Part shown: one piece after another, positions 56-15,541 of the stretch | Position numbering within the stretch: the stretch's first letter is position 1 | Layout: each line of letters opens with the position of its first letter | Source of the DNA: an uncultured Deinococcales bacterium | GTDB taxonomy: Bacteria; Deinococcota; Deinococci; Deinococcales; JAAFIG01 | Length of the DNA stretch: 15,542 nucleotides | Direction: 5' to 3' | NCBI GenBank assembly: GCA_964247135.1 | Contig: CAXTTL010000111.1 | Span: forward strand, 1 to 15,542 | The notes under the pieces: generated by a model | Seen by the model: the letters and a program-made list of their open reading frames with translations, nothing else | Told to the model about the DNA's origin: nothing | Databases searched by the model: none | Translations under genes and position numbers: made by a program

Positions 56-221
56 AAAGCGTGTTGACCCTCGAGAAACCAGAATGATTCTTTCAAAAAC
101 CTCAAAACTGTAGGGTGCGCTGTGCGCACCATGAACACGTAGATGACGGTGCGCACGGCGCACCCTACCAATACCTTTTGTTTTAAGAAAAACCTTTCAT
201 AAACCAGGGTCAACACACTTT
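56..221. mobile_element. Putative MITE-like element bounded by 16-bp inverted repeats
   Basis: AAAGCGTGTTGACCCT (56-71) and AGGGTCAACACACTTT (206-221) match 15/16 as inverted repeats. The 166-bp interior is non-coding and contains a REP doublet. No clear target-site duplication is visible. Confidence 0.5.
110..168. repeat. GTAG-family REP doublet (REPIN/BIME-like)
   Basis: GTAG-GGTGCGC-TGT-GCGCACC (110-130, +) and an inverted copy GTAG-GGTGCGC-CGT-GCGCACC (148-168, -) are 20/21 identical with a 17-nt spacer. A GTAG tetranucleotide followed by a short palindrome is the canonical REP architecture. Confidence 0.85.
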
Positions 222-248
222 GCGCCAGTCTCTTTTTATGTTGAGGTT

Positions 249-983
249 TTATTTTGTCGGGTGAGATTCAAAACTCGATAGCTCGAGCAGCAACTGGAAC
301 AAACTCTTGCGAATGGTTTTGGTTTGGAGTTCCAAACTGACGGGTTCGAGCGTCTCAAAATAAAACCGTCCGTTGCTCGAGTCGTTGGCGTGGGCGCACA
401 ATCGCAGCACGGCTTCCTCGCCAATTCGTCCCTGGTGTTCGGAATGAATCGGGCGACCTTGGACGAAGAAAATAAAACTGTTTTGTTCGCCCAGTTGAAT
501 GCGAAGCTTGCCGGTGCTGTTCGATTTTGCCAGCCACTGCAAGAGGTTGAGTAAATCCGCATCGTCGAGCGAACCGCCAATCGAGGGTTCGCGGATGCTG
601 CTCATCGAAACCTCAAAATTGACTTGACGCATGACCTCTTCGACCAGGCGCTTGGCAATCAGACTGATTTCGCTGACCGTACTCGAGGTGGAGAGCACCA
701 TGTCGTTGTTGTTGGTTTCCAAACCCTCGGGTTTGGCGTTTGCCAGCAAAATAAAGGCGGTGGCTTTTAGGGCTGGGTCGCCGCGAACGATCTCGTGCAA
801 ATCCGCGCCGCTCAAATCTGGCAACTCGAGGTCGGCGACCATCACGTCGGGTTGTGAACGCTCGAGGATGCTGGTGGCGTACATGGCGCTGGGCGCAATC
901 TCGGCTTGAAAGCCTTCAAACTGCATGTCGAGCATTAGGGCTTTGGCACGAGCAACATCGCTCGAGACGATCATGGCTTTCAT
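249..983 (-). CDS. Atypical response-regulator receiver fused to a C-terminal DUF4388 (PatA-N-like) domain
   Basis: 244 aa. N-terminal REC fold (PDVMVADLELPDLSG). C-terminal GSLDDADLLNLLQWL...STGKLRI...IFFVQGRPIHSE...GEEAV...GRFYF matches the DUF4388 pattern. Start overlaps the cheA stop (ATGA, 980-983). Confidence 0.85.
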   Translation of the reverse strand: MKAMIVSSDVARAKALMLDMQFEGFQAEIAPSAMYATSILERSQPDVMVADLELPDLSGADLHEIVRGDPALKATAFILLANAKPEGLETNNNDMVLSTSSTVSEISLIAKRLVEEVMRQVNFEVSMSSIREPSIGGSLDDADLLNLLQWLAKSNSTGKLRIQLGEQNSFIFFVQGRPIHSEHQGRIGEEAVLRLCAHANDSSNGRFYFETLEPVSLELQTKTIRKSLFQLLLELSSFESHPTK

Positions 984-3904
984 GCGCTGGCTCCAACGGC
1001 AACAGGTGCTCGAGGGCTTTGGGTTTCGTGGTGCGCACGGGCAAGCTCGAGAAAGCGCCGCAATTGGTTTTCATCCAGCGGTTTGTTGAAATATTCGCTG
1101 ACGCCCAAACGCATGGCGAAGTCGCGGTGTTTGTCGCTGGTGCGGGTGGTCAGCATGGCAACTGGTACTGTCGCATAATTTGATCGGCGGCGCAACTCCG
1201 AGAGCAATTCAAAGCCGTTGACGCGCGGCATTTCAAGGTCGGTGATGACCGCCATGAAGTCTTGGCTGGCGAGCGCGTTGATCGCATCTTGACCGTCGGC
1301 GGCGGTGGTGACTTCATAACCCAGGCGGCGAATGATTTGCGAGACCACGCGGCGCACACTCAAGGAATCATCGACCAGCAAGACATGCGGCAAGGATCGG
1401 TCAATCGGCACGACAGCATTGATCAGCGTACTGCGCTCGAGCCTTTCCAGACCGGTTGGGTCGAGCAAAATCACCGCCTCACCGTCCGTGCCGACCATTG
1501 CACCCGAAACGTGTTTGATGGCGCTGAACGGTTCCTCGAGCGCCCGAACCAGGGCTTGCTCGAGTCCCAGGAAACGGTCGGCTTTGAGGGCGATGCGTCC
1601 GTCGGTCGTCTCGAGCACCACAATCGAAATGCGTTTTTCGCTGGTTTCTGATTTTGGCAGACCGAGCAGTTCGGCGAGGTCGAGCAGGTCGAGGCGCTCA
1701 TTCTGGAAGTCGTACTTGGCTTGTTTGGGGTTGCTGGCTTCAAAACGCAACTCGCTGACCAGAACGCTGCGCAACGCGCGAACCGCCTCGCCAGGCAGGG
1801 CGTAACGCTCGCCGGAAGTCTCGAGCATCAAAACGTCGGAAATAATCATGGTGGCGGGAATCCGCAAGCTAAAGCGCGTCCCGAAACCAGGTTCGGTCTG
1901 AATGGCGACCTCGCCTTTGAGTTTACGGACGCTCGAGTACACGATGTCCATGCCCACACCGCGACCCGCACGGTCTGAAATCGTGCTGGCGGTGGAAAGT
2001 CCTGGCAGAAAGATCAACTCGAGCGCCTCCTCGTTGGAGAGCTTGATGACATCTTCGGCGCGGCGCAAACCCCTGGCGACGGCGGTCTGTTTGATCACGC
2101 CGACGTCCATGCCGTTGCCGTCGTCTTGAATGTCGATCACCAGATAATTGCCGCGACGCGACGCCGAAACCCGAATCGAACCGGCAATCGGTTTGCCGCG
2201 CCTCAAACGTTCTTCCCTGGATTCGATGCCGTGAACGGCGGCGTTGTTCATCAGGTGAATCAAAGAGTCCGCCAGACCGTCGAGCACCAGATTGTCAACC
2301 TCAACGTTCTCGCCAGTCAGCTCGAGGTTGATGGACTTGCCGAGTTCGTTTGCGGTCTGCCGAATCTGACGCCTTAAGCGCTGGTAAAAGCGACCCATCG
2401 AAACCATGCGCAAACGCCCAGCCTCGAGCCGCAAATTACGGGTGGTGCGTTCAAAGCTGGTGGTTTCGCGTTTGAAGTTGAGCGAGAGTTTTTGAAATTG
2501 CTCGCCAATTTCGCCCAAGTCCGCCGTCAACTCCGAAATCCCTCGGGACATCAGGGACAGGTCGTCGTAACGGTCAAACTCGAGTTCGGAGAAGGCACTT
2601 TGCACGTCGGAGCCGACATCGCCCTCGACCCGTGATTGTTCGGGTTGGGTTGATTCAGGGTTTTGAGCTTGGGCTGATACCCCCATCGCGCTCAAATCGC
2701 TGGTTTGTAACCTCGAGTCGCCGTAACGCAACGAGAATTCGGTGGCGGCTTGCAACAGACGCATTCTTGAGCTTTCAAGTTGATCTGAAAGCTCGATAAA
2801 TTCGTTGCTCATGCGGTCCAGTCGCGCACGGGTCAGCAGCACCTCACCAGAAATGTTCATGACACTCTCTAAACGGTTGATGCCAACCCGAATCGTGGCG
2901 ATGGGCGCGGCGGGTTCTTTGACGGGTTCGCTGGCGACCGGCAACATTGGTGGCAGATTCGACTCGATAAAATCATCGTTGGTGGCATCAATAATCGATT
3001 CCACACCCAAGAGTTCATCGAGCTGCCCTTGGGTGTCGCGCATCGATTGCTCGAGTTTGGTCTCCCGACCCTCGGCGGTGTGCAGCATCATGCTGAGGGT
3101 GTCCGTGCCTTGCACGATGGCTCTGGCTATCGGTTCAGACCAGGCGCTCGTGCCGTCGCGGACTTTGACCAAAATATCTTCTAAGCGGTGCGCCAATTTC
3201 CCGACGGGCTGGCAACCCACGCTGTACGCCGCGCCTTTGATCGTGTGCATGGCACGAAACACGGTGTTGACCGTGTCGCTCGGGTCACTCGGGTCAAAGC
3301 GTTCAATTGCGGCGGGCACGCTTTCAAGATGCTCGAGCACTTCGGGCGCAAAATACTCCCAGACTTCGGGGTTTTGGGCAAAATACTCGCGCAATTCTTG
3401 TTGCAAGGTTTTGCGAACCGGCATCTGCTGGGCGCGGGTAAAATCGGGCACGAGCGCCAAGTCTCGAGCCGTCGCCAGCTCTTCGGGCGACTTGCGGGTG
3501 AAATTGCTGGTGCCCGCCTTTAAAAGCCTTGCCAGCAATTCTGGACCGCCCAGACGCGCCAGTTCCAGCCCAACTTCGCCCTCATCGCCGCGCTCAGAAA
3601 TTCGTTCGAGGGATTCGGCAAAAATCGCGCCGCAGGTTTGGGCAAATTGATTGCACAAGTCCTGTTGCGAGCCTGTGAACTCTGGGGCAGATTCAAAAAC
3701 GCGCTCGAGCAAACCCGCCAGGTTTGCGATTTCGGGAAATTGGTACATGCCCGCCGAACCCTTCAGGCGGTGCGCGGCGACCACCAACTTGCGAGACTGC
3801 ACCGGATCGGGCAGCAATTCGCTGGTGCGTTCCAAGGTCGAAACCGTGTCCCAGGCTTCGGTCAGGAACATATCGAGCATTTCTGTTGTGGGTGTTGACA
3901 TCAT
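980..3904 (-). CDS. cheA: Hybrid chemosensory histidine kinase (CheA/ChpA/PixL-like): Hpt-Hpt-dimerisation-HATPase-CheW-REC
   Basis: 974 aa. Two Hpt motifs (AAHRLKGSAG, AMHTIKGAA), ChpA-like FSELEFDRYDDL segment, N box (LIHLMNNAAVHGIE), G1 (IQDDGNGMD), F/G2 (IFLPGLST...GRGVGMDIV), CheW domain and a C-terminal receiver (VLLVDDS...ITDLEMPRVNG...MLTTR...KP). Confidence 0.95.
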   Translation of the reverse strand: MMSTPTTEMLDMFLTEAWDTVSTLERTSELLPDPVQSRKLVVAAHRLKGSAGMYQFPEIANLAGLLERVFESAPEFTGSQQDLCNQFAQTCGAIFAESLERISERGDEGEVGLELARLGGPELLARLLKAGTSNFTRKSPEELATARDLALVPDFTRAQQMPVRKTLQQELREYFAQNPEVWEYFAPEVLEHLESVPAAIERFDPSDPSDTVNTVFRAMHTIKGAAYSVGCQPVGKLAHRLEDILVKVRDGTSAWSEPIARAIVQGTDTLSMMLHTAEGRETKLEQSMRDTQGQLDELLGVESIIDATNDDFIESNLPPMLPVASEPVKEPAAPIATIRVGINRLESVMNISGEVLLTRARLDRMSNEFIELSDQLESSRMRLLQAATEFSLRYGDSRLQTSDLSAMGVSAQAQNPESTQPEQSRVEGDVGSDVQSAFSELEFDRYDDLSLMSRGISELTADLGEIGEQFQKLSLNFKRETTSFERTTRNLRLEAGRLRMVSMGRFYQRLRRQIRQTANELGKSINLELTGENVEVDNLVLDGLADSLIHLMNNAAVHGIESREERLRRGKPIAGSIRVSASRRGNYLVIDIQDDGNGMDVGVIKQTAVARGLRRAEDVIKLSNEEALELIFLPGLSTASTISDRAGRGVGMDIVYSSVRKLKGEVAIQTEPGFGTRFSLRIPATMIISDVLMLETSGERYALPGEAVRALRSVLVSELRFEASNPKQAKYDFQNERLDLLDLAELLGLPKSETSEKRISIVVLETTDGRIALKADRFLGLEQALVRALEEPFSAIKHVSGAMVGTDGEAVILLDPTGLERLERSTLINAVVPIDRSLPHVLLVDDSLSVRRVVSQIIRRLGYEVTTAADGQDAINALASQDFMAVITDLEMPRVNGFELLSELRRRSNYATVPVAMLTTRTSDKHRDFAMRLGVSEYFNKPLDENQLRRFLELARAHHETQSPRAPVAVGASA

Positions 3905-3917
3905 GTTCGGACTTTCT

Positions 3918-5873
3918 TCACGCTGGCAATTGGAATCTCGAGAGGCTCTTGTTCAATTGCTCTGCCAGGGCACGCAAGGTTTCGGCGGTGTTCTGACCCT
4001 CCAAGCTGGCGCTTTGGGTTTGCATGGCGCTGGAACTGATGCTGGACACCGCCTCACGGACTTTTTCGACGCTTCGTGCGTGGTTTTGAGCTTCACTCGA
4101 GATACCCGAAGCGTCCGCTGCCGATTGGGTTGCCAATTTTGCGATTTGGGTCAACTGCACACCCGCCTGCGCGGCGACGTTGTAACCCTGTTCCACCTGT
4201 CCCGCACTGCCCTGCACACGTTCCACCATGTTCTGAATGTCGCTTTGAACGGCTTTGACGATGTTTGCCACCGCCTGCGCCGAACGCGCCGAGTCGTCGG
4301 CAAGTTTACGAACGCTGTCCGCCACCGCCGCAAAGCGCAAACCCGCCGCGCCCGCGCCCGCCGCCTCGAGCGAGGCGCCCAGCGCCAAGAGGTTCGTTTG
4401 ACTCGAGATGCGTGAAATGGTGCGCACGATCTCGCTGATCTCACTTGATCGCAGCGCCAAAGTGTTCATGCCGGTGGTCAGGCTGCGCACCTGATCCCGA
4501 ATGTTGCCAAGCTCGGTTTGGGTGGCGCTGACCGCCGCCTGACCCGACTGCGATGCCAACAGGGTTTGCTGCGCGACCTGGGCTGTTTCCTGCGCACGGG
4601 TTGCCAAACCACGAATCGCGTTCGTGACCTCGAGCACCTGGATGTTGGTCGATTCTGCGGTATTGGACTGGGTTTGGGCGTTGGAAACAATGCCCGAAGA
4701 GGTCTTCGTCATCGAGGTTGCCGACGAACCGACCTGAACGGCGGCGCGCTGCACGTCTTTCAAGAGATAACCGATTTCGTCGGTCATCAGGTTGATGGCA
4801 TCGACCACGTTACCCAGCGCATCCTCGGAAACTTTACCGCGCTGGGTCAAATCGCCGCCCGCGATGTTCATGGCGACATCCAAAAATTCTGAAACGTTTT
4901 GTTGAAGTGCCAAACCGCGTTGACGTTCGTCTTCCTGACGAGCGATGAACTCACGCAATTGAACCACCGAAGTTCCCAAAGCCCGCGAAACCGTGCTGAT
5001 CTCATCGCGCCCTGGCAAATCCGCCACCGCCTCGAGATTGCCTTCACGCAAGGACTGCGCCTGGGTCTCGAGCCTCGAGAGGCGCGAGGTGATCGAACGT
5101 GAAATGATGAATGCCAAGATCAAACCGAGCGCAACACTGATCAGCAAGCTTAAACCGATTTGAATCAGTGTACGTTGATAAATGGCTTGCGATTCCTCAG
5201 TGGCAATACCTGCCACCTCGTTTGCCGTTCCCAACAACGTCTGCAAACCAGCTCGAGCTTCCCCTGCGCGTCTGGTCGCACCCTCCGCCAGTTGAGTCAG
5301 CGGTTTGCCTTTTTTGACCGTTTCAAGAAAAGCGTTGATGTCTGAATTGGCATTGTCATAGACGGCAGCCAAAGAGCCAAGTGCAGACTCCTCGGCTTGC
5401 ATGGTGTCTTGTCCAACTCGAGCCATCAGATTCGATCTTTTGTTGATTTGCCAAACATCTTGGTACTGTTTAATGGCAGTTTTAATCACCAGATCGTTGT
5501 TGTTGATTTGTTCAATATAGGTATCTCTCACCGATTGGTTCGACGCGACAATGCTATCTCTTAAGATCAGTAAAATACGTTGAGTATCAGCAAAAGCCGT
5601 ATTCGCCTGATTTAATTGGTCAATGCTCGGCAAGGTAACTTCCGCGAAGTTGGACAATTGGTTTTTAAGACTGTTAAAACCGATAAAAACCGAAATGGCT
5701 GTGACCAAAATACCCAAACCCAGAGCCGCCACAATCAAACCCAGCTTGGGTTGCAACCGCAAATTGTCCAACCAGTTCGCGGTTTGTCTTGGACTTGTGC
5801 TCGAGGTCTGGGCAAGACTTACCGAAGACCTTTGTTTTTCTGACGCCTCTTTTTTAGACTTTATACGCTGCAT
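3918..5873 (-). CDS. Methyl-accepting chemotaxis protein MCP3 (PilJ-like; four-helix-bundle-type sensor, two HAMPs, divergent signalling tip)
   Basis: Two hydrophobic TM segments, HAMP motifs (GRDEISTVSRA; GGDLTQRGKVSEDALGNVVDAIN) and an MCP signal domain (QTNLLAL...VRKLA). Start moved from ORF-track 5942 to the ATG at 5873, which has an AGAGG Shine-Dalgarno; 651 aa. Confidence 0.93.
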   Translation of the reverse strand: MQRIKSKKEASEKQRSSVSLAQTSSTSPRQTANWLDNLRLQPKLGLIVAALGLGILVTAISVFIGFNSLKNQLSNFAEVTLPSIDQLNQANTAFADTQRILLILRDSIVASNQSVRDTYIEQINNNDLVIKTAIKQYQDVWQINKRSNLMARVGQDTMQAEESALGSLAAVYDNANSDINAFLETVKKGKPLTQLAEGATRRAGEARAGLQTLLGTANEVAGIATEESQAIYQRTLIQIGLSLLISVALGLILAFIISRSITSRLSRLETQAQSLREGNLEAVADLPGRDEISTVSRALGTSVVQLREFIARQEDERQRGLALQQNVSEFLDVAMNIAGGDLTQRGKVSEDALGNVVDAINLMTDEIGYLLKDVQRAAVQVGSSATSMTKTSSGIVSNAQTQSNTAESTNIQVLEVTNAIRGLATRAQETAQVAQQTLLASQSGQAAVSATQTELGNIRDQVRSLTTGMNTLALRSSEISEIVRTISRISSQTNLLALGASLEAAGAGAAGLRFAAVADSVRKLADDSARSAQAVANIVKAVQSDIQNMVERVQGSAGQVEQGYNVAAQAGVQLTQIAKLATQSAADASGISSEAQNHARSVEKVREAVSSISSSAMQTQSASLEGQNTAETLRALAEQLNKSLSRFQLPA

Positions 5874-5986
5874 ACAAAAACCTCTTTTTTGCTGCCTCTC
5901 CAATTTGAAACGCACTGTTTTGAAAACCTTGTGCAACTTCAATGAGATTCTTGCAGTGAGATTGCTAACCTCAAACCAAGCTCGAG

Positions 5987-6742
5987 TCAGGCGATCTGTT
6001 GGGGCTGGAAATCTTCATTCACATTTGGAATCACGGCATTTGCCAACAGTGGCACCACCACCGTAATCAATGCCACCAACAAGAACAAATCCAGCGAGAG
6101 CACGCCATCGCTGACAGAGGCGAGCGAGTTTTTTGCTTGTTCAGAAACATCAAATTGACTTGCCAGCATTCCAGTATAGTGCATCAAAGGAACCGCCAAA
6201 CCGACCACCACCGTGACCAACACGTTGCGAAAGGGCAAATTCGCCCAGAGGTTGTTGTTCAGTAACCACAAACCCACCGACGACAACACCACGGCAACCA
6301 ATGCCGACACGCCGACCATTGGCAGGCTCAAGGTCATTTCTGCCCCCGAGCGCAAGGAAAACATTCCGGTATAGTGCATCGCGCCGACGCCAACGCCGAG
6401 CAATGTGCCACCAAGAGCAATACGAAGCAGGCTGGTTTGCTGAACGCCGACAATACCAAACGCCAACCAGGCGGCAATAAAAATAAACACGATAGACAAT
6501 GCCGTAATCGGCAGGTTGTAAGCGACCAAAACGGGCAATTTCAAGGCTGCCATGCCGACAAAGTGCATGGTCCAAACGCCGAAACCGAACGACAATGCCC
6601 CGCCCAGTTGCCACTGCATCCGGTGACTCGGGTCGGTTCTCATGCGGTTCAGGCAGGTCAGCGCCGAACTCGAGGCGACGATGGCAACCAAAAACGAGAA
6701 AAGAACGAGAATTGGATCGTAAGTGTTTTGCAAATGGGTCAT
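5987..6742 (-). CDS. Stand-alone MHYT-domain integral membrane sensor protein
   Basis: Hydrophobic throughout, with three MHYT motifs (WTMHFVGM, GAMHYTGM, PLMHYTGM) and the typical N-terminal YDPILVLFSFLVAIVASSSAL. No cytoplasmic output domain. Start moved to the ATG at 6742 (TAAGGAG SD); 251 aa. Confidence 0.92.
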   Translation of the reverse strand: MTHLQNTYDPILVLFSFLVAIVASSSALTCLNRMRTDPSHRMQWQLGGALSFGFGVWTMHFVGMAALKLPVLVAYNLPITALSIVFIFIAAWLAFGIVGVQQTSLLRIALGGTLLGVGVGAMHYTGMFSLRSGAEMTLSLPMVGVSALVAVVLSSVGLWLLNNNLWANLPFRNVLVTVVVGLAVPLMHYTGMLASQFDVSEQAKNSLASVSDGVLSLDLFLLVALITVVVPLLANAVIPNVNEDFQPQQIA

Positions 6743-6772
6743 GAAATTACTCCTTACCAAACGAGAATGGAT

Positions 6773-8710
6773 TTACGATGGCAACTGGAAGCGCGAGAGT
6801 GACTGAGAAAGTCGCTCGGAAAGTTGCACCAGGGCTTGCGCAGAATCTTTTCCCTGCTTGGATTCTTGTTCTGTTTGGCTTGCGGTGCCTGCCATCGACT
6901 GCACCGCCTTTGCCACGTTGTTGATCTGGTCGAGTTGATTGCGGGTGCTGCTGGCGATGGTCTGGGCGAAATTCGCGCTTTGGGTCGTCAGTGCTGAAAT
7001 CTCTTGTAGACGCTGACCCGCGCCAGTCGCAATTTCATAACCCAACTCCACCTCTTTGGCTCCAGCCTCCACGCCAACCACCGCCGCCTGGGTTTCGGTC
7101 TGAATGGCACGCACCAGACTGGTCACACGGCTGGTGGCGCGTTCTGCCTCTTCGGAGAGTTTACGAACCTCGTCGGCGACCGTCGCAAATCGAGCACCTG
7201 CCTCACCCGCGCTCGAGGCTTCGACGGTGGCGTTCAGTGCCAGCAGGTTTGTTTGCGCGGCGATGCCCGAGATGGTCTCGACAATTTCTGAAATCTCGAG
7301 CGAACGGTTGGCGAGGGATTTCATACCGCGCGAAATGTTTTGCACCTCGCGCCTGATGTTTTGAATACCAACCAAGGTATCCGCCACGGCTTTTTGACCC
7401 GCCTGACCTGCCTGCAATGCCTCTTGCGCCGTCTGCGCGGCGACCTCGGCGGCTTCGGACATTTGACGCATGTTGGTGGTGACCTCTAAGGTTTGAGCCT
7501 GCGCCGAAGTTGAGATTTTGGATTGTTCTTGCGCTTCAAAGGCAATGCCCGTGGACACCTGCGACAGGCTGCTCGCGCCAAGGTTCACTTCAGAACTGAC
7601 ATTTTGCACATCCTTGAGCAAGTACCCAATCTCTTCGGTCATCAGGTTGATCGCGTCAACCACGTTTCCGAGCGCATCTTCGGTGACCCGACCCTTTTTG
7701 GTCAAATCGCCACCCGAAATGTCCATTGCCACCTGCAAGAAGTCAGACACGTTCTCTTGCAACTTCACGCCCTTTTGCAGCTCGAGTTCGCGCTCCACCT
7801 GCAATTCTTGCAATTGACCCAAGGACGTGTTGAATGCCTGAGCCACGTTACCGATTTCGTCCTGACCGACGACATTGACCCGTACACCGAAATTACCACT
7901 GCGCAAGGTGTTGGCGGCATTCTCGAGTTTTGCCAGGCGTTGCCTGGTTGAGGTTGCAATCAGCAATGCCAATATCAGACCAACCATCAAGACAAGTCCA
8001 GTCAGTAACAAATTACTTAAATTGGTTGAATTGTAAGTACGAATGGCATCGTCATTTGAAATACTGGCAAAATCTTTGTTTACATCAATTAATGCTGAAA
8101 ATTGATCGGTAATAGCTGAAAGTTGATTAATTAATTCAGTTTTAAGGATTCGATTCGGTCTGCCAGCATTGACCGAATCGAAATACTTAGAGAGTTTCGT
8201 TAACACATCTGCATAATTCTTGTTGAGTGCCTCAAGTGTTGTAACTTCAGTTTTTTGCTTATCAAGTGCATTTGCTAACGCCAAAGTCGCCGTAAATTGA
8301 GGGCTGGTTGTGGTGACCCACTCTTTGTTGTACCTATCAAGTGCATTTTGCACAACTTTTTGAGCAACGTTGATTTCAGAAATGATTTTTGTTTTTGTCG
8401 ATTGAGAATCAAGAGAAGCTTCTACTGTTTCTAGGTTTCGTTCGGTAATCAAAATGTTTTTCCGAGCATCGGTCAGCGCTATAATAGGAATAAGCATGAA
8501 ATTATAAATATTATCGATTTGATAACGCATGGCTTTGAGACCATTGGAGTTTACAAGCGCAATTACCACAGTGCCAACAAACAAGACCAGAACAATCAGT
8601 GCAATTTTAAACAAAAACGGCAAATTGTCTAAAAGACCAACTCGAGCACCAACAGATTGTGCCACTGGGCGAAGCGCTTTATTTTCATATAATTTAGGGG
8701 TTTGCTGCAT
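6773..8710 (-). CDS. Methyl-accepting chemotaxis protein MCP2 (PilJ-like; four-helix-bundle-type sensor, two HAMPs)
   Basis: TM1 (KIALIVLVLFVGTVVIALV), TM2 (LLLTGLVLMVGLILALLIA), HAMP (GQDEIGNVAQAFN) and signal domain (QTNLLALNATVEA...VADEVRKLSE). Start moved to the ATG at 8710 (GAGGAG SD); 645 aa. Confidence 0.93.
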   Translation of the reverse strand: MQQTPKLYENKALRPVAQSVGARVGLLDNLPFLFKIALIVLVLFVGTVVIALVNSNGLKAMRYQIDNIYNFMLIPIIALTDARKNILITERNLETVEASLDSQSTKTKIISEINVAQKVVQNALDRYNKEWVTTTSPQFTATLALANALDKQKTEVTTLEALNKNYADVLTKLSKYFDSVNAGRPNRILKTELINQLSAITDQFSALIDVNKDFASISNDDAIRTYNSTNLSNLLLTGLVLMVGLILALLIATSTRQRLAKLENAANTLRSGNFGVRVNVVGQDEIGNVAQAFNTSLGQLQELQVERELELQKGVKLQENVSDFLQVAMDISGGDLTKKGRVTEDALGNVVDAINLMTEEIGYLLKDVQNVSSEVNLGASSLSQVSTGIAFEAQEQSKISTSAQAQTLEVTTNMRQMSEAAEVAAQTAQEALQAGQAGQKAVADTLVGIQNIRREVQNISRGMKSLANRSLEISEIVETISGIAAQTNLLALNATVEASSAGEAGARFATVADEVRKLSEEAERATSRVTSLVRAIQTETQAAVVGVEAGAKEVELGYEIATGAGQRLQEISALTTQSANFAQTIASSTRNQLDQINNVAKAVQSMAGTASQTEQESKQGKDSAQALVQLSERLSQSLSRFQLPS

Positions 8711-8742
8711 GTTATCTCCTCGAGAATTCAAAACTTAAACGC

Positions 8743-11028
8743 TCAGTTGGGCAATTGGAAACGTTGCAAAGATTGCGTCAATTGCTCTGAAAGCTTCACC
8801 AAACCCTGCGCCGAAACCTGCCCCTGCTGCGAGTCTGTTGCCGTTTGACTTGCCGTACCCGCAATTTCTTGTACGGCTTGCGCCACATTGTTGATCTGAT
8901 GCACCTGCAAACGCGTGCTGGCGGCAATGTTTTCGGCAAACGCCGCCGATTGGGCGGTCAGCACCGAAATTTCTTGCAGACGCTCACCCGCGCCGGTCGC
9001 AATCCGGTAACCCTCTTCCACCTCTCGGGTTCCGTTCTCGACACCGACCACCGCCGCCTGAACCTCGAGCTGAATGGTTTTGATCAAACCCGTAATTGAG
9101 AGTGTGGCTTTGGCGGCGTTCTCGGCAAGGTTACGAACCTCATCGGCGACAATCGCAAAACGCGCACCGGCATCGCCCGCACCGGACGCCTCGATGGCGG
9201 CGTTCAAAGCGATCAAATTGGTTTGCCTGGTGATCTGGGAGATCGTATCGACAATCTCAGAAATCTCGAGCGAACGGTCCGAGAGCGATTTGATGCCCTT
9301 GGAAATATTCTGCACCTCACGGCGAATACCCTGCATTCCTTCCAGGGTTTGCAACACCGCCTGTTGACCCGCCTGTGAAGCCTCGAGCGCCTGGCTTGCC
9401 GACAACGAGGCTTTTTGGGCATCGTCTGACATCAAACGCATCGAGGTGGTGACTTGGGTGGTTTGTTCTTGGGCTTGACGCGCGATATCGGTTTGGTTCT
9501 GGGCACCAACCACAATGCCTCTGGACACTTGAGTCACGCTGTTTGCACCAAGGTTCACCTTGGTGGTCGCGTCTTGTACGTCTTTGAGAAGATAGCCAAT
9601 CTCTTCGGTCATCAGGTTGATGGCGTCAACCACGTTGCCGAGCACGTCCTCGGTGACCCGACCTTTTTTGGTCAAATCGCCGCCAGAGATGTCCATCGCC
9701 ACGTTCAAAAAATCGCCGATGTTGGATTGCAACTGAATGCTGCGCTGACGTTCCTCTTCTTGACGACCCAAGAAATCCCGAAGTTGCAAGATCGAGTTGT
9801 TAAACGAACCCGCCAGCTTGCCCAACTCGTCTCGAGAGCGCACCGGAATGAGCTGCGACAGATCGCCAGCACCAAATTTTTGCACCACCGCGCCGATGTC
9901 ACCCAACGGCGTGGTGATTGAATTGATCACGATGCCCGTGAAAAGCAGCGCCAGCAGGAAAAGACCGATCAGCAACAGCAAGTTTGCCAAACCCGAGCGC
10001 TGCAAGTTGAGCGTGCGTTGCAAGAGGTTTTTTTGCAGGGTTTGAATGCCAAAATTTGCCATGTTTTCGTAAGCGACAATCGTTTTGGCAAAGGAATCAT
10101 AATATTCTCTGGGCGCCCTGGCAAAACTTAAACTTTCAATCAAATCGAACTGAGCCGCCCGCAAGCCCGAAGTGGAACCCAAATCGAGCGGTTGCAAACG
10201 CGTTTCCAAATCTGGACGCAACGACGGATTTGCCAGAGCAATGTCTTCGATCAAACGAGAAACACTGGCAAAACCTTGTTTTGAACGGTCAAAATAACCT
10301 GCCAAAGTGGTGCGTTGCGTCGGTGTGCCGCCGCGAGCCTGCAACAAATTCGAACCGAACGTTCGCAAGGTACTGAAGGCTTCAATCGATGTCGGGATTT
10401 GATTGATCAACAGGTCTTGGATCAACAACGAATCGAGTTCTGACTCGAGCGTCAAACCCGAAGTACGAGCCAAGCGACTGAAAATGGGCATAAAGCGCGT
10501 TTCGATAAAATCTGTTTGCACCTCGAAGGTTCGCGTCGTTTTCATGGTTGGGATTTCACCCTTAACGGCAACCCAAGCGGACTTTAAATTGTTTAAAAAT
10601 TCTGCCAAGCCAAATTCATCTCGAGCTTGGGTGTTTTTTTCGATCAAATTGTCAATCTCGAGCGAGATTTGATCTGACTTTGGTTGCATGGCAGACAAAT
10701 CTTTGCCCTCGGCAGCCAGCAAACCAGACTCGGCACGGTGCGCAACCAGTAACGCGAACATGTTGGACAAATCCTGAAGCACCACCACGCCTTTGGATTC
10801 TTGGGTCAAAATCCTGGTCGATTCGTTTTGGCGCTGCAAGGTTTGAACCACAAAGAACACCAGTGGCAAAGCCAAGAGCAGCACGATCAATGCCAATTTG
10901 ATTGAAACAGGCAAATTGGCGAAATTGAATTCGCTTCTTGGTGCCTTCAGTTCAATCGTTGCTCGAGTATCGGTGTCGACCAGCGCAGACTTTTCGGCAC
11001 GTGGGCGACGGGGTTTAATTGCGTCCAT
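8743..11028 (-). CDS. Methyl-accepting chemotaxis protein MCP1 (PilJ-like; large helical, possibly NIT-like sensor domain)
   Basis: 761 aa with an AAGGAG SD. Two TM segments flank a roughly 280-aa extracytoplasmic region, followed by HAMP (SRDELGKLAGSFN) and signal domain (QTNLIALNAAIEA...VADEVRNLAE). Confidence 0.94.
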   Translation of the reverse strand: MDAIKPRRPRAEKSALVDTDTRATIELKAPRSEFNFANLPVSIKLALIVLLLALPLVFFVVQTLQRQNESTRILTQESKGVVVLQDLSNMFALLVAHRAESGLLAAEGKDLSAMQPKSDQISLEIDNLIEKNTQARDEFGLAEFLNNLKSAWVAVKGEIPTMKTTRTFEVQTDFIETRFMPIFSRLARTSGLTLESELDSLLIQDLLINQIPTSIEAFSTLRTFGSNLLQARGGTPTQRTTLAGYFDRSKQGFASVSRLIEDIALANPSLRPDLETRLQPLDLGSTSGLRAAQFDLIESLSFARAPREYYDSFAKTIVAYENMANFGIQTLQKNLLQRTLNLQRSGLANLLLLIGLFLLALLFTGIVINSITTPLGDIGAVVQKFGAGDLSQLIPVRSRDELGKLAGSFNNSILQLRDFLGRQEEERQRSIQLQSNIGDFLNVAMDISGGDLTKKGRVTEDVLGNVVDAINLMTEEIGYLLKDVQDATTKVNLGANSVTQVSRGIVVGAQNQTDIARQAQEQTTQVTTSMRLMSDDAQKASLSASQALEASQAGQQAVLQTLEGMQGIRREVQNISKGIKSLSDRSLEISEIVDTISQITRQTNLIALNAAIEASGAGDAGARFAIVADEVRNLAENAAKATLSITGLIKTIQLEVQAAVVGVENGTREVEEGYRIATGAGERLQEISVLTAQSAAFAENIAASTRLQVHQINNVAQAVQEIAGTASQTATDSQQGQVSAQGLVKLSEQLTQSLQRFQLPN

Positions 11029-11049
11029 CAGGAACTCCTTTACAATGGC

Positions 11050-11520
11050 TCAGGCTTGAGCCAACTCGCGTCCATCAATTCGTGCCGCCAACGACCGTAC
11101 CAACTTGGCGACATCCAAAACATTGACAACCTGTCCTGCCACCAACGTCTGCCCCAAAGTTAAAGCCGAAAAACGCGCGTCAAGCACAGGCTCGAGTTGC
11201 GAGGGCACATCATCAAAACCTATCACTGCATCGATCACAAAAGCCATGTGCTTGGATTCAAATTCGATTTGCACCGCAAGTTTTGGCTCAGCGGTGCCCG
11301 TTTTAAGCCCCAAAGTTCGTTCGATTCGCACCAACGGGAAAATTTGTCCGCGCACCGCAAACAAGCCCAGCACATCTTCAGGCGCTCGAGGGACGCGGGT
11401 GATGGTTTGAAGCGTATGAATCTGACGGGTGTACTGACCAGGCACGGCAAACAAAACATCGTTCAGCTCGAACAAACACGCTCGAGCCGAGGCTTTTGGT
11501 TTGCTGGCGGCACTGTTCAT
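11050..11520 (-). CDS. cheW: CheW/PilI-like coupling protein
   Basis: ITRVPRAPEDVLGLFAVRGQIFPLV...AFVIDAVIG is the CheW pattern. Start moved to the ATG at 11520, which overlaps the upstream cheY stop (ATGA, 11517-11520); 156 aa. Confidence 0.92.
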   Translation of the reverse strand: MNSAASKPKASARACLFELNDVLFAVPGQYTRQIHTLQTITRVPRAPEDVLGLFAVRGQIFPLVRIERTLGLKTGTAEPKLAVQIEFESKHMAFVIDAVIGFDDVPSQLEPVLDARFSALTLGQTLVAGQVVNVLDVAKLVRSLAARIDGRELAQA

Positions 11521-11882
11521 TTGCTTGTCAAATTCCTGACCACGCTCAACAAGGCGTCCGTTGTGTAGGGTTTGGTCAGGTAGTCGTTCGCGCCCTGACG
11601 TTTGCCCCATTCGATATCGGTCGGTTCTTGCTTGGAGGACAAAATGCAAACTGGAATGTTTTTGGTGGTTTCGTCGCGCCGCAATTTGCGCAAAATTTCG
11701 TAGCCGTTACGCGTTGGCATGACCACATCCAATAAGATCAAATCTGGTTGCTCAGCACTGGCGAGTGCCTCGACGCCGTCACCATTGACGCAGGAAATAG
11801 ACTGATGCCCACCGGCAACCAAAACGGATTCCACAAGTTTCAACTCTGCCAGCGAATCATCACAAACGATTACTTTAGCCAT
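11517..11882 (-). CDS. pilH: Single-domain response regulator, CheY family, PilH-like
   Basis: MAKVIVCDDS...LILLDVVMP..NGYE...LSSK....DIEWGKRQGANDYLTKP has all receiver catalytic residues. The D..WG.RQGA motif is typical of PilH/PixH. Start at the ATG at 11882 with a GAGGGAG SD; 121 aa. Confidence 0.9.
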   Translation of the reverse strand: MAKVIVCDDSLAELKLVESVLVAGGHQSISCVNGDGVEALASAEQPDLILLDVVMPTRNGYEILRKLRRDETTKNIPVCILSSKQEPTDIEWGKRQGANDYLTKPYTTDALLSVVRNLTSK

Positions 11883-12018
11883 ATTCAAACTCCCTCTTGA
11901 TCGTGGCATCCCGCCACAAGTTGTCTTGAAAAACGTCCTACCACCCTGAACTTAGCACCCCAAAGACAATCGAGACGTGGAAAATGACCAATGAAAAACA
12001 TGATTGGCTCACACTTCC

Positions 12019-12048
12019 AAAATAGCTTCCGTTTCGCCCCTGATGCAA
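12019..12048 (-). promoter_or_regulatory. Candidate sigma70-type promoter of the chemosensory operon
   Basis: Minus strand TTGCAT (12048-12043), 18-nt spacer, TATTTT (12024-12019). The -35 lies inside the operator palindrome. Match to consensus is only partial. Confidence 0.3.
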
Positions 12049-12058
12049 ACGTTTGCAT
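12043..12058. promoter_or_regulatory. LacI/GalR-family-type operator palindrome
   Basis: ATGCAAACGTTTGCAT is a perfect 16-bp palindrome with a central CG and flanking AAA/TTT, as in PurR and CcpA-cre sites. It is intergenic, about 160 bp upstream of the first chemosensory gene. Confidence 0.7.
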
Positions 12059-12140
12059 TTGAAAAGTGAACTCGAGGTCAGACAAAAAGGTCTAACTTTG
12101 AGCATTTAGGTCCATGTTTTCAGTTAAGCTTTCAGGACAG

Positions 12141-12174
12141 CAAAAAGGGTTCGATACGATCACGCATCGAACCC
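12141..12174 (-). terminator. Intrinsic terminator of the fad operon
   Basis: Minus strand GGGTTCGATGCG-TGAT-CGTATCGAACCC-TTTTTG forms a 12-bp stem with one G-U pair and a U tract, 21 nt after the thiolase stop. Confidence 0.85.
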
Positions 12175-12195
12175 AGAAACTTGGGTTTTCAATCT

Positions 12196-13371
12196 TTAGT
12201 TCAGCAATTCAAAAATGCCTGCCGCACCTTGCCCACCGCCGACGCACATCGTCACCATGCCGTAACGCCCACCGCGCCGACGAAGCTCGTGAATCAGGGT
12301 CGCGGTCAGTTTCGCGCCCGTCGCCCCGAGCGGATGCCCAAGCGCGATTGCGCCGCCGTTGACGTTCAATTTCTCAAGCGGAATACCCACCGTGCGAGCC
12401 ACCGCCAAGGCTTGCGCCGCGAATGCCTCGTTCAGTTCAAACAAGTCAATGTCTGAAAGCTCGAGTCCCGCCAGTTTTAAGGCTTTGGGAATCGCTGCCA
12501 CAGGACCAATCCCCATGATCTCAGGGTCAACCCCAACCGCCGCGAACGAAACAAACCGCGCCATCGGTTTTAAACCCAATTCTGCCGCCTTGCTCGCGCT
12601 CATGATGACACTCGCCGCCGCCCCATCCGAGTACGGACTCGAGTTGCCCGCCGTGACGCTGCCACCCTCACGAAACGCGGGACGCAACTTGCCCAAACCC
12701 TCGAGCGAGGTGTCGCGCCGCAAGAGTTCATCGGTGTCAAACTGCACGGTTTCCGAAATTAATTTTGTCCCTTTGAGTTTGTCCACCCGTACAGGCACAC
12801 TGACAATCTCATCCTTAAATTTTCCAGCATCAATCGCCGCCGCCGCTCGAGCGTGAGATTCCACCGCGAACGCATCCTGATCGGCTCGAGACACCCCGTA
12901 CTTGTCCGCGACGTTCTCGGCGGTGTGACCCATGCCGATGTACGCCCCAGGGCGCGAATCCACCAGTTGCGCGTTGGCGCTAAAATGAAAGCCTGACATG
13001 GGAACCATGCTCATGCTTTCCGCACCACCCGCAATCAAAACATCATTCATGCCTGAACGCACCGCCTGCGCCGCCATCGCAATGGTCTGCAAACCCGAGG
13101 CGCAAAAACGATTGATCGTCACACCCGCCACCGAGTCTGGCAACCCAGCCTGCAAACTCGAGAGACGCGCAAAGTTAAGCCCTTGCGAACCTTCGGGCAT
13201 GGCGCAACCCAAGTAGACATCCTCGACCAATGCTGCATCAATTCCAGCTCTCGAGACACTTTCTTTTAAAACCAATGCCGCCAAATCATCGGCTCGAGTG
13301 TTGGTGAGTGTTCCTTTTTGCCCACGACCTACAGGCGTGCGAACGGTGGATACGATTACGGCTTCATTCAT
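12196..13371 (-). CDS. fadA: Acetyl-CoA C-acyltransferase (3-ketoacyl-CoA thiolase)
   Basis: 391 aa with thiolase motifs [15 protein letters not shown] (catalytic Cys), [13 protein letters not shown] and MCVGGGQG. It lies downstream of a fadN-like gene and has an AAGGA SD inside the end of the HNH gene. Confidence 0.95.
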
Positions 13372-14383
13372 GGTTAGATTCCTTTTCTGCCAAACTTGAT
13401 GATCTCAATATAGACTCTTGATAAATTTTTTCAATAAGGGGTTCGATTTTTATACGTTCTTTTGATTTTTCTTTGACATTAATTATGTAACTAAAGCTAT
13501 CAGAAAAAGACTTCCCTAGGTTACTATCGGAAATCTTAACCGTAATTGAATAATTTCCAAAAATTCCAACACTACAATCTGTTTTTTCAGTATAATTGAT
13601 TGTAACGTAATGATTAAATTCATCATCCAAAATTGGAAATTTCTCTCTAAGCGAGGTAAGTGGTCCTTCTATGACAATTCCACTATTTTTAAAAGCGTCA
13701 AAATTAATTGAATCAGTAAGAAGCAATTCTCTAATGGATTTTCCAATTGGGTCTTTCAAGTAAATTTCACCGTGTTCAAGACAGGTAATTTCGTAGGCAA
13801 TTTTTAGTAAACCTCGAGTAATCTGTGCCAAATTAAGATCAAACGTAAGTTTCATCCTGCTAATTTTTTTCTTTTCTAAAATTTTTATATTACTTAAATC
13901 TATGATTTTACCTTTCTTTAAGTATCGATCTTGTGTTTTTTTTAACATTTTAGGAAATTTTAATTCATCAGACATATCAATTTCAGCAAATAATTTAAAA
14001 CTTCCATCACTTTTTTCAGTGATTTCCAATCTTGGAACAACATAAAAATTTGATTTTCCATCTTTACTATTTCTACTATGTATTTTTGTATTTGGATCAT
14101 CTGCTGATTCAAGGTTTTCCATCCACTCTGGTAATGAACCGCTTCTCTCCTTTAAACCGAGTCGCCTTCTTTTCATCTTACAAAAAAAGGAGTTAATTAA
14201 AGGTGCATCGACCCTTCTTCCTAAGTGATTGTTACACTTTTCACACATGTTGTAGATTAGTATATTCCCACCTAGAGTTTCTGGGAATATATGCTCTTTA
14301 GATTTTAGAGAGTTTTTAAATTCTCCAAGACATAGAATACAGGTAAACAAATCTTGGTCGAATTTTGTTTCGATTTTTTCCAT
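13364..14383 (-). CDS. HNH endonuclease family protein (HNH_5-like), AT-rich, probably horizontally acquired
   Basis: 339 aa. N-terminal CILC...[12 protein letters not shown]...[12 protein letters not shown] is a zinc-binding HNH motif. DNA is very AT-rich (13861-13920 has 8/60 GC). The stop overlaps the thiolase start by 8 nt. Confidence 0.85.
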
Positions 14384-14392
14384 TACTGCGTC

Positions 14393-14650
14393 CTATCTAT
14401 AAACTTCGCGTCTGTGTCGAATCGCAACAATTTCGATCACTCGAGCTTTGGTGTCTACTTCGTACAAAATGCGGTAATCGCCAACTTTGACCCTGTATTC
14501 GGAACGATCTGTCAACTTAATAAACCCGTGAGGGAATGGATTCTCGAGCAAGGCGTTTATGGCTTCAGTCACTCGCAATTCGATCTGTTCGGGTAAGGCA
14601 AGTAATTCTTTTTCTGCACTGCGTTTGAGTTCAATGCGGTATGAATTCAC
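14393..14650 (-). CDS. relE: Type II toxin, RelE/StbE family mRNA interferase
   Basis: 85 aa: YRIELKRSAEKEL..LP...L.ENP.P.G..KL....YRVKVGDYRILYEV.....IEIVAIRHRREVYR is the RelE pattern. GTG start overlaps the antitoxin stop (GTGA). Confidence 0.9.
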   Translation of the reverse strand: MNSYRIELKRSAEKELLALPEQIELRVTEAINALLENPFPHGFIKLTDRSEYRVKVGDYRILYEVDTKARVIEIVAIRHRREVYR

Positions 14651-14862
14651 GATTCCCCGATTTGATTTTTACGTTCTTGCAATTTGGCTTTCACGCTTTC
14701 CCAAGAAACGGTTTCTTCATTGCGTCGTTCAGCAAAAATAGCCCTGTCTTCGTTGTCTTCTAATGCCTCGAGCAGCGCCTTGTACTCGGCGGCTGGAATG
14801 GTTACTTCAACTTCGTTTCCTGCCTCGTCGTAAGTAATTTTTGGTTTGGTCATTGCTGTCAT
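14647..14862 (-). CDS. Type II antitoxin (small, acidic; cognate of the RelE toxin)
   Basis: 71 aa immediately upstream of and coupled to relE. EYKALLEALEDNED...ETVSWESVK resembles RelB/Phd-type antitoxin C-termini. GAGGTG SD. Confidence 0.8.
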   Translation of the reverse strand: MTAMTKPKITYDEAGNEVEVTIPAAEYKALLEALEDNEDRAIFAERRNEETVSWESVKAKLQERKNQIGES

Positions 14863-14879
14863 GTTTCACCTCTTCCTCG

Positions 14880-14885
14880 AGTGTA
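14880..14885 (-). promoter_or_regulatory. Possible -10 element (TACACT) for the TA cassette
   Basis: TACACT on the minus strand 17 nt before the antitoxin ATG, within the 31-nt gap after fadN. No recognisable -35. Confidence 0.25.
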
Positions 14886-14893
14886 GCCGAAAA

Positions 14894-15541
14894 TCAATTT
14901 CTCAACGGTTTGCCTGTCTTCAATGTGTGCGCGATTCGTTCTTGCGTTTTCTTCTTTCCCGTCAAGGTCAAAAACGCTTCCCGCTCGAGGTCAAGCAGGT
15001 ATTGGGTGCTGACTTGCATGGTGCGGTTGGCTGTCCCGCCACACAAGATTTTCGCCAGGTGTTTTGCCAGTTCCGCATCGTAATCAGAAGCCTGTCTCGA
15101 GAGTTTCAGCGCATCAATGCCAACCATCAAGTTCGCGTATGCCGCCTCACCCAGCGCGGGAATGTCAACTCGAGGTTGCGGTTGAATGTAATTTGGTGCC
15201 AACTCGAGCACTTTTTGTTTGGCGTCGGCAATCAATCGGTCACGGTTCATGGTGATCCCGTCTGAGTTGCGCAAGTACCCCAAAGCTCGAGCCTCCAACG
15301 CGCTGGTGCTGGTTTTGGCGAGCGCGATTTGCTCGAAGGCTTTGCGAATCGCGGCAAATCCGTCTTCGCCTGGAAGCAGCGCGTCGGTAAAACGCGTGAC
15401 CATTTCAGTGGTGCCACCACCAGCAGGAATCAGTCCGACGCCCATTTCGACCAAGCCCATGTAGGTTTCGGCGTGGGCTTGCACGTGGTCGGCGTACAGG
15501 CTCATTTCTGTGCCGCCACCGAGCGCGAGGCTGAACGGTGC
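14894..15541 (-). CDS. fadN: 3-hydroxyacyl-CoA dehydrogenase/enoyl-CoA hydratase (FadN-like), C-terminal part; 5' end outside the window
   Basis: The frame stays open to the window edge: APFSLALGGGTEMSL...ETYMGLVEMGVGLIPAGGG (crotonase motifs) and the FadN-type C-terminus LLDLEREAFL...RIAHTLKTGKPLRN. Confidence 0.9.
   Translation of the reverse strand, partial: APFSLALGGGTEMSLYADHVQAHAETYMGLVEMGVGLIPAGGGTTEMVTRFTDALLPGEDGFAAIRKAFEQIALAKTSTSALEARALGYLRNSDGITMNRDRLIADAKQKVLELAPNYIQPQPRVDIPALGEAAYANLMVGIDALKLSRQASDYDAELAKHLAKILCGGTANRTMQVSTQYLLDLEREAFLTLTGKKKTQERIAHTLKTGKPLRN

Follow-up and report, generated by a model that had tools for sequence, protein, structure and literature searches.

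To our knowledge, the function and origin of the highly iterated palindrome HIP1 have been open for three decades, and it has been studied only in cyanobacteria. There, HIP1 (GCGATCGC) occurs at 300-2,700 copies per Mb and other highly iterated palindromes (HIPs) at 1,000-2,000 per Mb, each with a matching methyltransferase according to the accessible part of PMC4390886, and precedent exists for a HIP of six bases, GGCGCC in Calothrix PCC 7103 (PMC4390886 and PMC5861425, accessible parts). Here we describe the hexamer CTCGAG, examined from a window of 15,542 nucleotides that is the whole of contig C111 of an assembly, G000, from an uncultured bacterium (5.09 Mb, 386 contigs, GC content 52.7%, 84% complete, 1.8% contamination). 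CTCGAG is a HIP-type case outside the cyanobacteria and the densest known to us, and it is very probably a genuine element of the HIP type, maintained by a DNA-level force that works on each site autonomously.

Like HIP1 and the alternate HIPs (GGCGCC, GCsGC, rCCGGy, GGGATCCC and TCGATCGA), CTCGAG is a short GC-containing palindrome and the top word of its genome, lies in all reading frames as well as between genes, is conserved between species beyond the background, and is specific to its lineage, being replaced or absent in related ones. On three features that mark the HIP class, namely abundance, excess across frames and non-coding DNA, and interspecies conservation, CTCGAG behaves as the HIPs do. 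Unlike HIP1, it belongs to another phylum, reaches 6,663 copies per Mb, and has a GC content of 67% rather than 75-100%. It is also distinct from HIP1 in the strict sense, a cyanobacterial word with CGATCG and GATC methylation, as its genome avoids CGATCG and its host looks like a member of the Deinococcota, and, unlike for the HIPs, no cognate or conserved methyltransferase was found for it.

Other systems share some of these properties. Uptake sequences, non-palindromic words of 9-12 nt that occur about once per kb and are recognised by a competence receptor for preferential uptake, probably spread through a process akin to drive. CTCGAG resembles the DNA uptake sequence of Neisseria and the uptake signal sequence of Pasteurellaceae in being genome-wide, lineage-specific, frequent in genes and of influence on peptides, but differs in being an exact 6-bp palindrome with weak flank preferences. 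In the Dcm/Vsr system of E. coli, sequence-specific repair bias raises the methyltransferase target CCWGG and depletes its deamination neighbours, with a small effect; in contrast, the excess of CTCGAG is 25-35-fold, no C5 methyltransferase was found in the related genome G008, Vsr was not found in G000, and neither CTTGAG nor CTCAAG stands out from the other neighbours of CTCGAG. Unlike a type II restriction-modification target of the XhoI, PaeR7I or AvaI type, CTCGAG is enriched 25-fold instead of avoided. In the Nocardiaceae, an orphan CTCGAG methyltransferase accompanies clusters of the motif at the replication origin, between dnaA and a DNA polymerase III gene, as given in the accessible part of PMC4752239; that system has the same word and a role outside restriction, but its enrichment is local, not genome-wide. 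No report of genome-wide CTCGAG hyper-abundance was found in the literature within the search, which left out most subscription journals and supplements, and the accessible parts of the sources on CTCGAG methylation in Nocardia, Halorubrum and hot-spring communities (PMC4752239, PMC8112702, bioRxiv 10.64898/2026.06.24.734251) do not describe it.

The initial annotation, made from the window alone, had counted about 73 CTCGAG sites against about four expected. The exact count is 73 (4.7 per kb, spanning 70..15291), and 200 dinucleotide-preserving shuffles of the window gave 3.12 ± 1.73 copies with a maximum of nine, none of them reaching 73. Across G000 there are 33,925 copies, or 6.66 per kb and one per 150 bp, amounting to ~4% of all bases, and CTCGAG is the commonest hexamer of the genome, with the next-ranked hexamers being overlaps of CTCGAG itself. 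The expectation is 1,369 copies under a zero-order model (24.8x excess) and 963 under a first-order Markov model (35x excess). The abundance is not confined to this locus, as the lowest density of any of the 386 contigs is 2.56 per kb, and only three CTCGAG-free gaps in the genome exceed 2 kb and none exceeds 3 kb.

That codon or dipeptide usage would be insufficient to explain these sites, as had been proposed from the window, was borne out with a crude set of 4,558 non-overlapping open reading frames (ORFs) of at least 100 amino acids, covering 86.6% of the genome. The coding sequences contain 28,647 CTCGAG, compared with 3,988-4,041 after within-gene shuffling of synonymous codons (five replicates; 7.1x excess) and 1,617-1,737 after codon permutation (three replicates), which the observed number exceeds 17-fold. 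Sites in the frame CTC-GAG number about 17,431-17,462 vs ~3,100 in the synonymous shuffle (5.6x), those in xCT-CGA-Gxx about 4,574-4,575 vs ~336 (13.6x), and those in xxC-TCG-AGx about 6,635-6,642 vs ~578 (11.5x). The observation from the window that the sites fall in different frames was likewise correct, with 33, 17 and 16 in these same frames of its long minus-strand ORFs. Density is higher in non-ORF DNA (7.52 per kb, 5,239 sites) than in ORFs (6.51 per kb). At places one base short of CTCGAG, a silent third position supplies the missing base with odds ratios of ~5-40 relative to transition alternatives and mostly 25-300 (range about 12-330) relative to transversion alternatives, and these ratios are alike across all frames and all six positions. 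Given the synonymous-shuffle, codon-permutation, frame, non-ORF and site-completion results, codon or dipeptide usage was rejected as the cause.

The imprint extends to the proteins. Leu-Glu is the most over-represented dipeptide of G000 (observed/expected ratio, O/E, 2.40; 22,699 copies), compared with 1.02 for Glu-Leu, and 76.8% of Leu-Glu pairs are encoded as CTCGAG. The density of CTCGAG is highest where constraint is lowest: it is 9-11 per kb around gene ends and reaches 15.8 per kb, genome-wide, over the 10 nt that follow stop codons. In ~133 of ~3,001 genes the word begins precisely 2 nt past the stop codon, ~4x the number at adjacent positions, and this spike has an A-rich spacing with no wider consensus.

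Conservation between species was measured by aligning 410 kb of a genome of the same genus, G005, to G000, giving 85 blocks and 287 kb at 84.3% identity. Of 1,996 aligned CTCGAG, 1,570 (78.7%) are identical in G005, compared with 44.1% of hexamers overall (median 44.7%), which places CTCGAG first among the 1,860 hexamers for which 60 or more instances were aligned. Third-codon-position identity is 0.84-0.91 within CTCGAG sites and 0.66-0.74 elsewhere, and intergenic identity is 0.933 within sites and 0.829 elsewhere. Where a site is not conserved, the partner word is mostly one of the six transition neighbours of CTCGAG (counts of 38, 35, 30, 29, 22 and 18), and a footprint of deamination at a single cytosine was not seen among these neighbours. 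New sites do not appear preferentially near lost ones, with 36 found vs 32.9 expected within 30 bp, 61 vs 61.9 within 60 bp, and 109 vs 95.8 within 100 bp. Each CTCGAG behaves as an independent unit under a directional force, and this force is blind to frame and coding status and has acted throughout the history of the uncultured family of G000, hereafter f1.

Recognition is limited to the CTCGAG hexamer. Its flanks in G000 are only mildly biased (G at -1 in 39%, C at +1 in 38.5%, A at -3 in 37%), and all four palindromic 8-mers around it are rarer than independent flanks predict, among them GCTCGAGC, with 4,225 copies vs about 5,050 predicted, and CCTCGAGG, with 641 vs about 1,450. A longer true motif or a hairpin was rejected on the basis of the weak flanks and the deficit of palindromic 8-mers, and a repeat or mobile element as carrier was rejected on the absence of a flank consensus, which holds also at the spike after stop codons. 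Over the short range accessible in a 386-contig assembly, spacing is near geometric (mean 148, median 108, coefficient of variation 0.96), with 3 nt as its sole periodicity; for HIPs, Xu et al. 2018 describe a periodic distribution at the long range of 10-90 kb. Regular spacing or density homeostasis was not seen, given the near-geometric gaps and the loss of sites without nearby replacement.

The initial annotation had further held that the sites vanish from AT-rich, foreign-looking DNA. They are thinned there but not gone: in 1-kb windows of G000 the density is ~7 per kb at GC 50-60% and 0.94 per kb below 35% GC. The example within the window is the following.

13385-14875: AT-rich stretch, GC 0.35 (insertion given as 13364-14875, GC 0.30-0.35), bounded by the thiolase gene and the conserved gene that follows it

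This stretch includes an HNH-endonuclease ORF at 13364-14383 (PF14279, HNH_5) and is without counterpart in the five same-genus genomes G001-G005 except for two short fragments of 47 and 108 bases, while its flanks are syntenic in those genomes at 83-89%. It holds four CTCGAG (13813, 14440, 14543 and 14767) vs 0.15 expected from composition, about 27x, so that the word, though thinned in AT-rich DNA, persists in it.

Seven sites of the window lie outside long ORFs, at 70, 5981, 12071, 14440, 14543, 14767 and 14876. Five intergenic sites had originally been named; those at 70, 5981, 12071 and 14876 are as described, while that at 8719 falls within the longest ORF (6773-8731), for which the true start is uncertain. 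The four sites and the longest gap, in a gene for a methyl-accepting chemotaxis protein (MCP), are as follows.

70..75: CTCGAG site, non-coding, downstream of the PATAN/response-regulator ORF (249-983, minus strand)
5981..5986: CTCGAG site in the 44-bp gap between an MCP ORF (3918-5942) and the MHYT ORF (5987-6760), immediately following the MHYT stop codon
12071..12076: CTCGAG site, intergenic, between the CheW ORF and the thiolase ORF
14876..14881: CTCGAG site, intergenic, downstream of ORF 14894-15505 (minus strand)
7928..8640: longest stretch of the window without CTCGAG (719 bp from site to site, GC 0.37), in the N-terminal sensor part of MCP ORF 6773-8731

Most of the window (249-11649, minus strand) is a chemotaxis-like gene cluster that is syntenic in all five same-genus genomes and comprises a PATAN/DUF4388 response regulator, a hybrid CheA with Hpt and receiver domains, three MCPs, an MHYT membrane sensor protein and CheW. 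Beyond its downstream end, positions 14-40 form a GC-rich hairpin between an A-run and a T-run (AAAAAAGGCGCAG...CTGCGCCTTTTTT) that resembles a bidirectional intrinsic terminator, and positions 100-172 hold a palindromic element of ~60 bp (GTAGGGTGCGC...GCGCACCCTAC). This element has dozens of matches on both strands across the five same-genus genomes, all of which carry it, at 76-100% identity, and therefore looks like a dispersed repeat of the repetitive extragenic palindrome or miniature inverted-repeat transposable element type. A scan of the window with Rfam gave no matches.

The abundance of CTCGAG stands out against the treatment of other palindromes in the same genome. O/E is below 0.2 for 36 of the 64 palindromic hexamers of G000, and the avoided words include the following, given with their copies in the genome.

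GAGCTC: 0
GGGCCC: 1
CGGCCG: 3
AGGCCT: 4
CGTACG: 5
GGATCC: 7
CCGCGG: 11

The tetramer GGCC has 380 copies (O/E 0.016), and the HIP1 core CGATCG has 47 (O/E 0.03), with GATC at O/E 0.95. The most enriched palindromes are CTCGAG at 24.8 and then TTTAAA at 3.7, making CTCGAG the single extreme exception to palindrome avoidance in G000. The purged palindromes, together with many fast-changing methyltransferases, point to long exposure to diverse restriction systems.

To place the word in the phylum, 151 genomes of the order and 101 genomes of the phylum were sampled, and both samples gave the same five families. All 19 genomes of f1, which span five genera and include one closed genome (G011), carry 4.3-6.8 CTCGAG per kb, while the reversed word GAGCTC has 0-568 copies (0 in G000 and at most 25 in 16 of the 19). 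The proposal that this lineage has a HIP-type palindrome of its own is thereby upheld, as the word is genome- and family-wide, present in all frames and between genes, and conserved in position. In family f3 (36 and 55 genomes in the two samples), CTCGAG is avoided, with 26-1,193 copies (0.01-0.3 per kb) and GAGCTC similarly low. The 22 genomes of the genus-level group g9 have about 0.9 CTCGAG per kb with GAGCTC about equal, and several genomes in parts of families f5 and f2 have 2-3.4 per kb with GAGCTC low. Two intermediate f5 genomes, G128 and G166 (99% complete), were tested over 146 kb and 168 kb of sequence (loci L307-L328) and showed 3.0-3.5 CTCGAG per kb, 2.9-4.5x the synonymous shuffle, with a 5-8-fold enrichment in frames 1 and 2, about 3 per kb in non-ORF DNA, and 7-9 copies of GAGCTC. 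G013, G126 and G147 also count as intermediate. These results indicate that the behaviour exists outside f1 in a weaker form, at about half strength, and G128 and G166 may serve as culturable models.

The proteins of G000 make its host look like a member of the Deinococcota. GroEL scores 873 bits to PDB chain 4v4o_A, which we take to be from Thermus thermophilus, and 694 to the next natural chaperonin; DnaK scores 860 to its best PDB chain vs about 616 for the E. coli type; and the best named match of the window's thiolase is from Deinococcus phoenicis at 70%, with no close relative returned. The composition of the phylum, in which one large genus has genomes of 2.7-4.8 Mb and another has genomes of 1.9-2.5 Mb, would be consistent with this placement. 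Neither 16S rRNA nor rpoB was found in G000, which is 84% complete. Viral contigs with three clustered CTCGAG included none that was f1-like among the matches listed (80 loci), a result uninformative on f1 phages, and those listed were mostly GC-rich (GC 0.58-0.71 in the 15 densest).

A search was made for a methyltransferase or other protein that reads the word. G000 has at least 11 methyltransferase-like genes, all but one with CTCGAG at near-native density: two for C5 enzymes, four or five for N6/N4 enzymes of the beta class, one for an enzyme of the D12 class, one HsdM-like, and three large and Eco57I-like. NCBIfam gave the methyltransferases generic names only. Five orthologue groups were sought in 41 genomes (19 of f1 and 22 others), while for N6N4_a, N6N4_e, N6M_a and the three Eco57I-like proteins the comparison was limited to 12 loci of five genomes. 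The five groups are distributed as follows.

C5_a: at least 70% identity in 3 of 18 other f1 genomes (G001, G012, G090)
C5_b: at least 50% identity in 3 of 18 other f1 genomes (G001 and G002 at 79-89%, G007 at 50%)
N6N4_b: at least 74% identity in 2 of 18 other f1 genomes (G002, G007), plus a copy in G013 (f2) that is 54% identical and contains a stop codon
N6N4_c: about 80% identity in 4 of 18 other f1 genomes (G006, G009, G077, G090)
D12-class enzyme: 76-93% identity in 6 of 18 other f1 genomes (7 of 19 including G000)

The D12-class enzyme was not found in G007, G008, G009, G012 or G025, which are 91-94% complete. Its gene in G000 (C320:2155-2985, minus strand) encodes a DPPY-type adenine methyltransferase that is closer to the copy of another genus (G011, 84%) than to that of the same genus (G005, 76%), which suggests that it moved horizontally, perhaps on a prophage. 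A beta-class methyltransferase gene at C189:4856-5632 of G000, beside ftsZ (C189:5722-6798), has no CTCGAG and a GC content of 0.40 within a CTCGAG-rich neighbourhood and looks recently acquired.

Profile scans gave a similar picture. PF01555 matched in 17 of the 19 f1 genomes and had no match in the closed genome G011, and PF00145, the C5 methyltransferase profile, matched in four of the five f1 genomes scanned and had no match in G008. The C5 enzymes of five genomes share 25-35% identity, with one pair at 45%, and the sole C5 gene of G011, with no CTCGAG and a GC content of 0.42, looks recently acquired. PF07669 matched in all five genomes scanned and HsdM-like enzymes also gave matches, in neither case orthologous; PF02086 was patchy across the genomes scanned, and PF02384 was scanned in G000 only. 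No methyltransferase orthologue common to all 19 f1 genomes was found among the five groups profiled, nor any universal Pfam class in the genomes checked. The methyltransferase repertoire turns over while the abundance of CTCGAG is constant, which weakens the case for a single conserved orphan methyltransferase, and the combination of such an enzyme with biased repair, put forward in the initial annotation, gains no support from these searches. Non-orthologous or unrecognised enzymes with CTCGAG specificity may nevertheless be compatible with the patchy profiles.

What, then, is the force? We lean, tentatively and at somewhat less than an even chance, toward biased conversion instead of a function of each site. 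On this view, the perfect 6-bp palindrome would be recognised by a sequence-specific protein of the restriction-modification kind, and proteins of this kind read palindromes as dimers. Mismatch correction or gene conversion would then be biased toward perfect CTCGAG, a form of molecular drive that may be helped by frequent recombination among genome copies and cells, and the word would accumulate wherever protein or regulatory constraint allows. Proteins would be rewritten too, as the Leu-Glu excess implies. Conversion bias is preferred over per-site function because spacing is random and lost sites are not compensated, because density tracks the lack of constraint and the force overrides protein sequence, and because the force acts even on the recent AT-rich insertion; a useful function at each of 33,925 sites, with the load that it would entail, is also harder to imagine. 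Joined into one statement, a HIP-type element under a DNA-level force that consists of biased conversion by a reader protein is possible rather than probable. A bolder form, that this is a second, independent origin of hyper-iterated palindromes, outside the cyanobacteria and without a dedicated conserved methyltransferase, in which a reader drives the hexamer to fixation site by site, seems rather unlikely; such a reader might, for example, cut or nick near-cognate sites, with repair from protected copies in a multi-copy genome.

Several points weigh against conversion bias. No reader protein was found in the methyltransferase, Vsr and XhoI-family profile searches: Vsr (PF03852) was not found in G000, 84% complete, and neither was the XhoI endonuclease family (PF04555), a weak negative because of that completeness and because the control matched none of 14 control genomes. 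The six transition neighbours of lost sites are near-equal in number, so that no footprint points to the correction of one particular mismatch, for example T:G at a single cytosine. That f1 is polyploid and recombines at a high rate is assumed from cultured Deinococcota. Conversion bias and selection on each site would both make losses slower and gains faster, and are therefore not separable in these comparisons. The positional conservation of HIP1 was taken by Xu et al. 2018 (PMC5861425, accessible part) as selection, not as replenishment by repair.

Among the other explanations, one modelled on that of Elhai (2015) for HIP1 has a CTCGAG methyltransferase, possibly an orphan, marking the sites, with methyl-directed or methyl-associated mismatch repair ratcheting near-sites toward the word, or with selection that retains methylatable sites for the timing of replication or repair. 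A palindrome of 6 bp is what a type II methyltransferase typically targets, and G000 has its set of at least 11 methyltransferase-like genes, all but one at near-native CTCGAG density. CTCGAG-specific enzymes exist, including the Nocardia orphan (PMC4752239) and an m5C enzyme of Halorubrum (PMC8112702), CTCGAG is reported to be methylated in hot-spring communities (bioRxiv 10.64898/2026.06.24.734251), and every alternate HIP in cyanobacteria has a matching methyltransferase (PMC4390886), each as given in the accessible parts of these sources. This explanation is nonetheless improbable in view of the five patchy orthologue groups, none of them family-wide, the absence of PF01555 matches in G011 and of PF00145 matches in G008, the non-orthology of the PF07669 and HsdM-like matches, the divergence of the C5 enzymes and apparently recent arrival of that of G011, the failure to find Vsr in G000, and the lack of a deamination-type asymmetry among lost-site neighbours. 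About equally improbable is that CTCGAG tags self-DNA, being recognised in uptake or recombination, so that biased uptake with recombination, or selection for exchangeability, fills the gene pool with it. Its density is high, uniform over contigs, lower in AT-rich insertions and common to f1, and the purging of most other 6-bp palindromes would be expected for DNA exchanged across restriction systems. Against it, the known uptake sequences are non-palindromic 9-12-mers at ~1 per kb, and a hexamer gives little specificity per site. The site-autonomous pattern does not discriminate a self-DNA tag from conversion bias because it is expected under both. In favour of a tag, recent work connects HIP1 with transformation and suggests that it serves as an uptake sequence (PMC13756078, in which phylogenetic regression was applied to HIP1, and bioRxiv 2024.09.10.611283, accessible parts).

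Selection could instead keep each site for the binding of a nucleoid-organising or chromosome-maintenance protein, a role in chromosome architecture that the accessible part of Xu et al. 2018 (PMC5861425) argues for HIP1 and that would suit the positional conservation of CTCGAG at silent and intergenic positions included. The random short-range spacing without local compensation, a density that follows the lack of constraint and not a structural pattern, and the large load that 33,925 individually selected sites would imply make this quite improbable, more so than the two preceding explanations. Last, the word might be generated by codon, dipeptide or base composition, or be an artefact of assembly or vector. 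CTC and GAG are common codons, and the Leu-Glu frame alone gives ~1 site per kb in GC-rich relatives, but this is far outweighed by an excess of 7-fold over the synonymous shuffle (11-14-fold in frames 1 and 2) and of 17-fold over codon permutation, by non-ORF DNA denser than ORFs, by a reversed word with no copies, and by sites that recur in 19 independent assemblies, one of them closed, and are conserved in position; the probability of such an origin is practically negligible.

At about 2.5x the upper range quoted for HIP1, CTCGAG is an independent and stronger case of the phenomenon. Related families form a natural dose series, in which the word is avoided, is neutral, or occurs at ~3 or at 4.3-6.8 per kb, and this gradation across the phylum makes comparative discovery of the responsible factor feasible. 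If abundance is driven by a reader protein, phylogenetic profiling should be able to find it and cultured relatives with intermediate levels would allow it to be tested, and if the genera g13 and g22 are cultured, as their inferred identity has it, the question would be open to experiment. In practical terms, the density of CTCGAG offers a sharp marker with which to bin these genomes and to spot DNA that they acquired recently, and XhoI cloning or mapping of such DNA would yield fragments of ~150 bp. For the organism itself, the proteome has been reshaped by pressure on a DNA word, with Leu-Glu as its top over-represented dipeptide.

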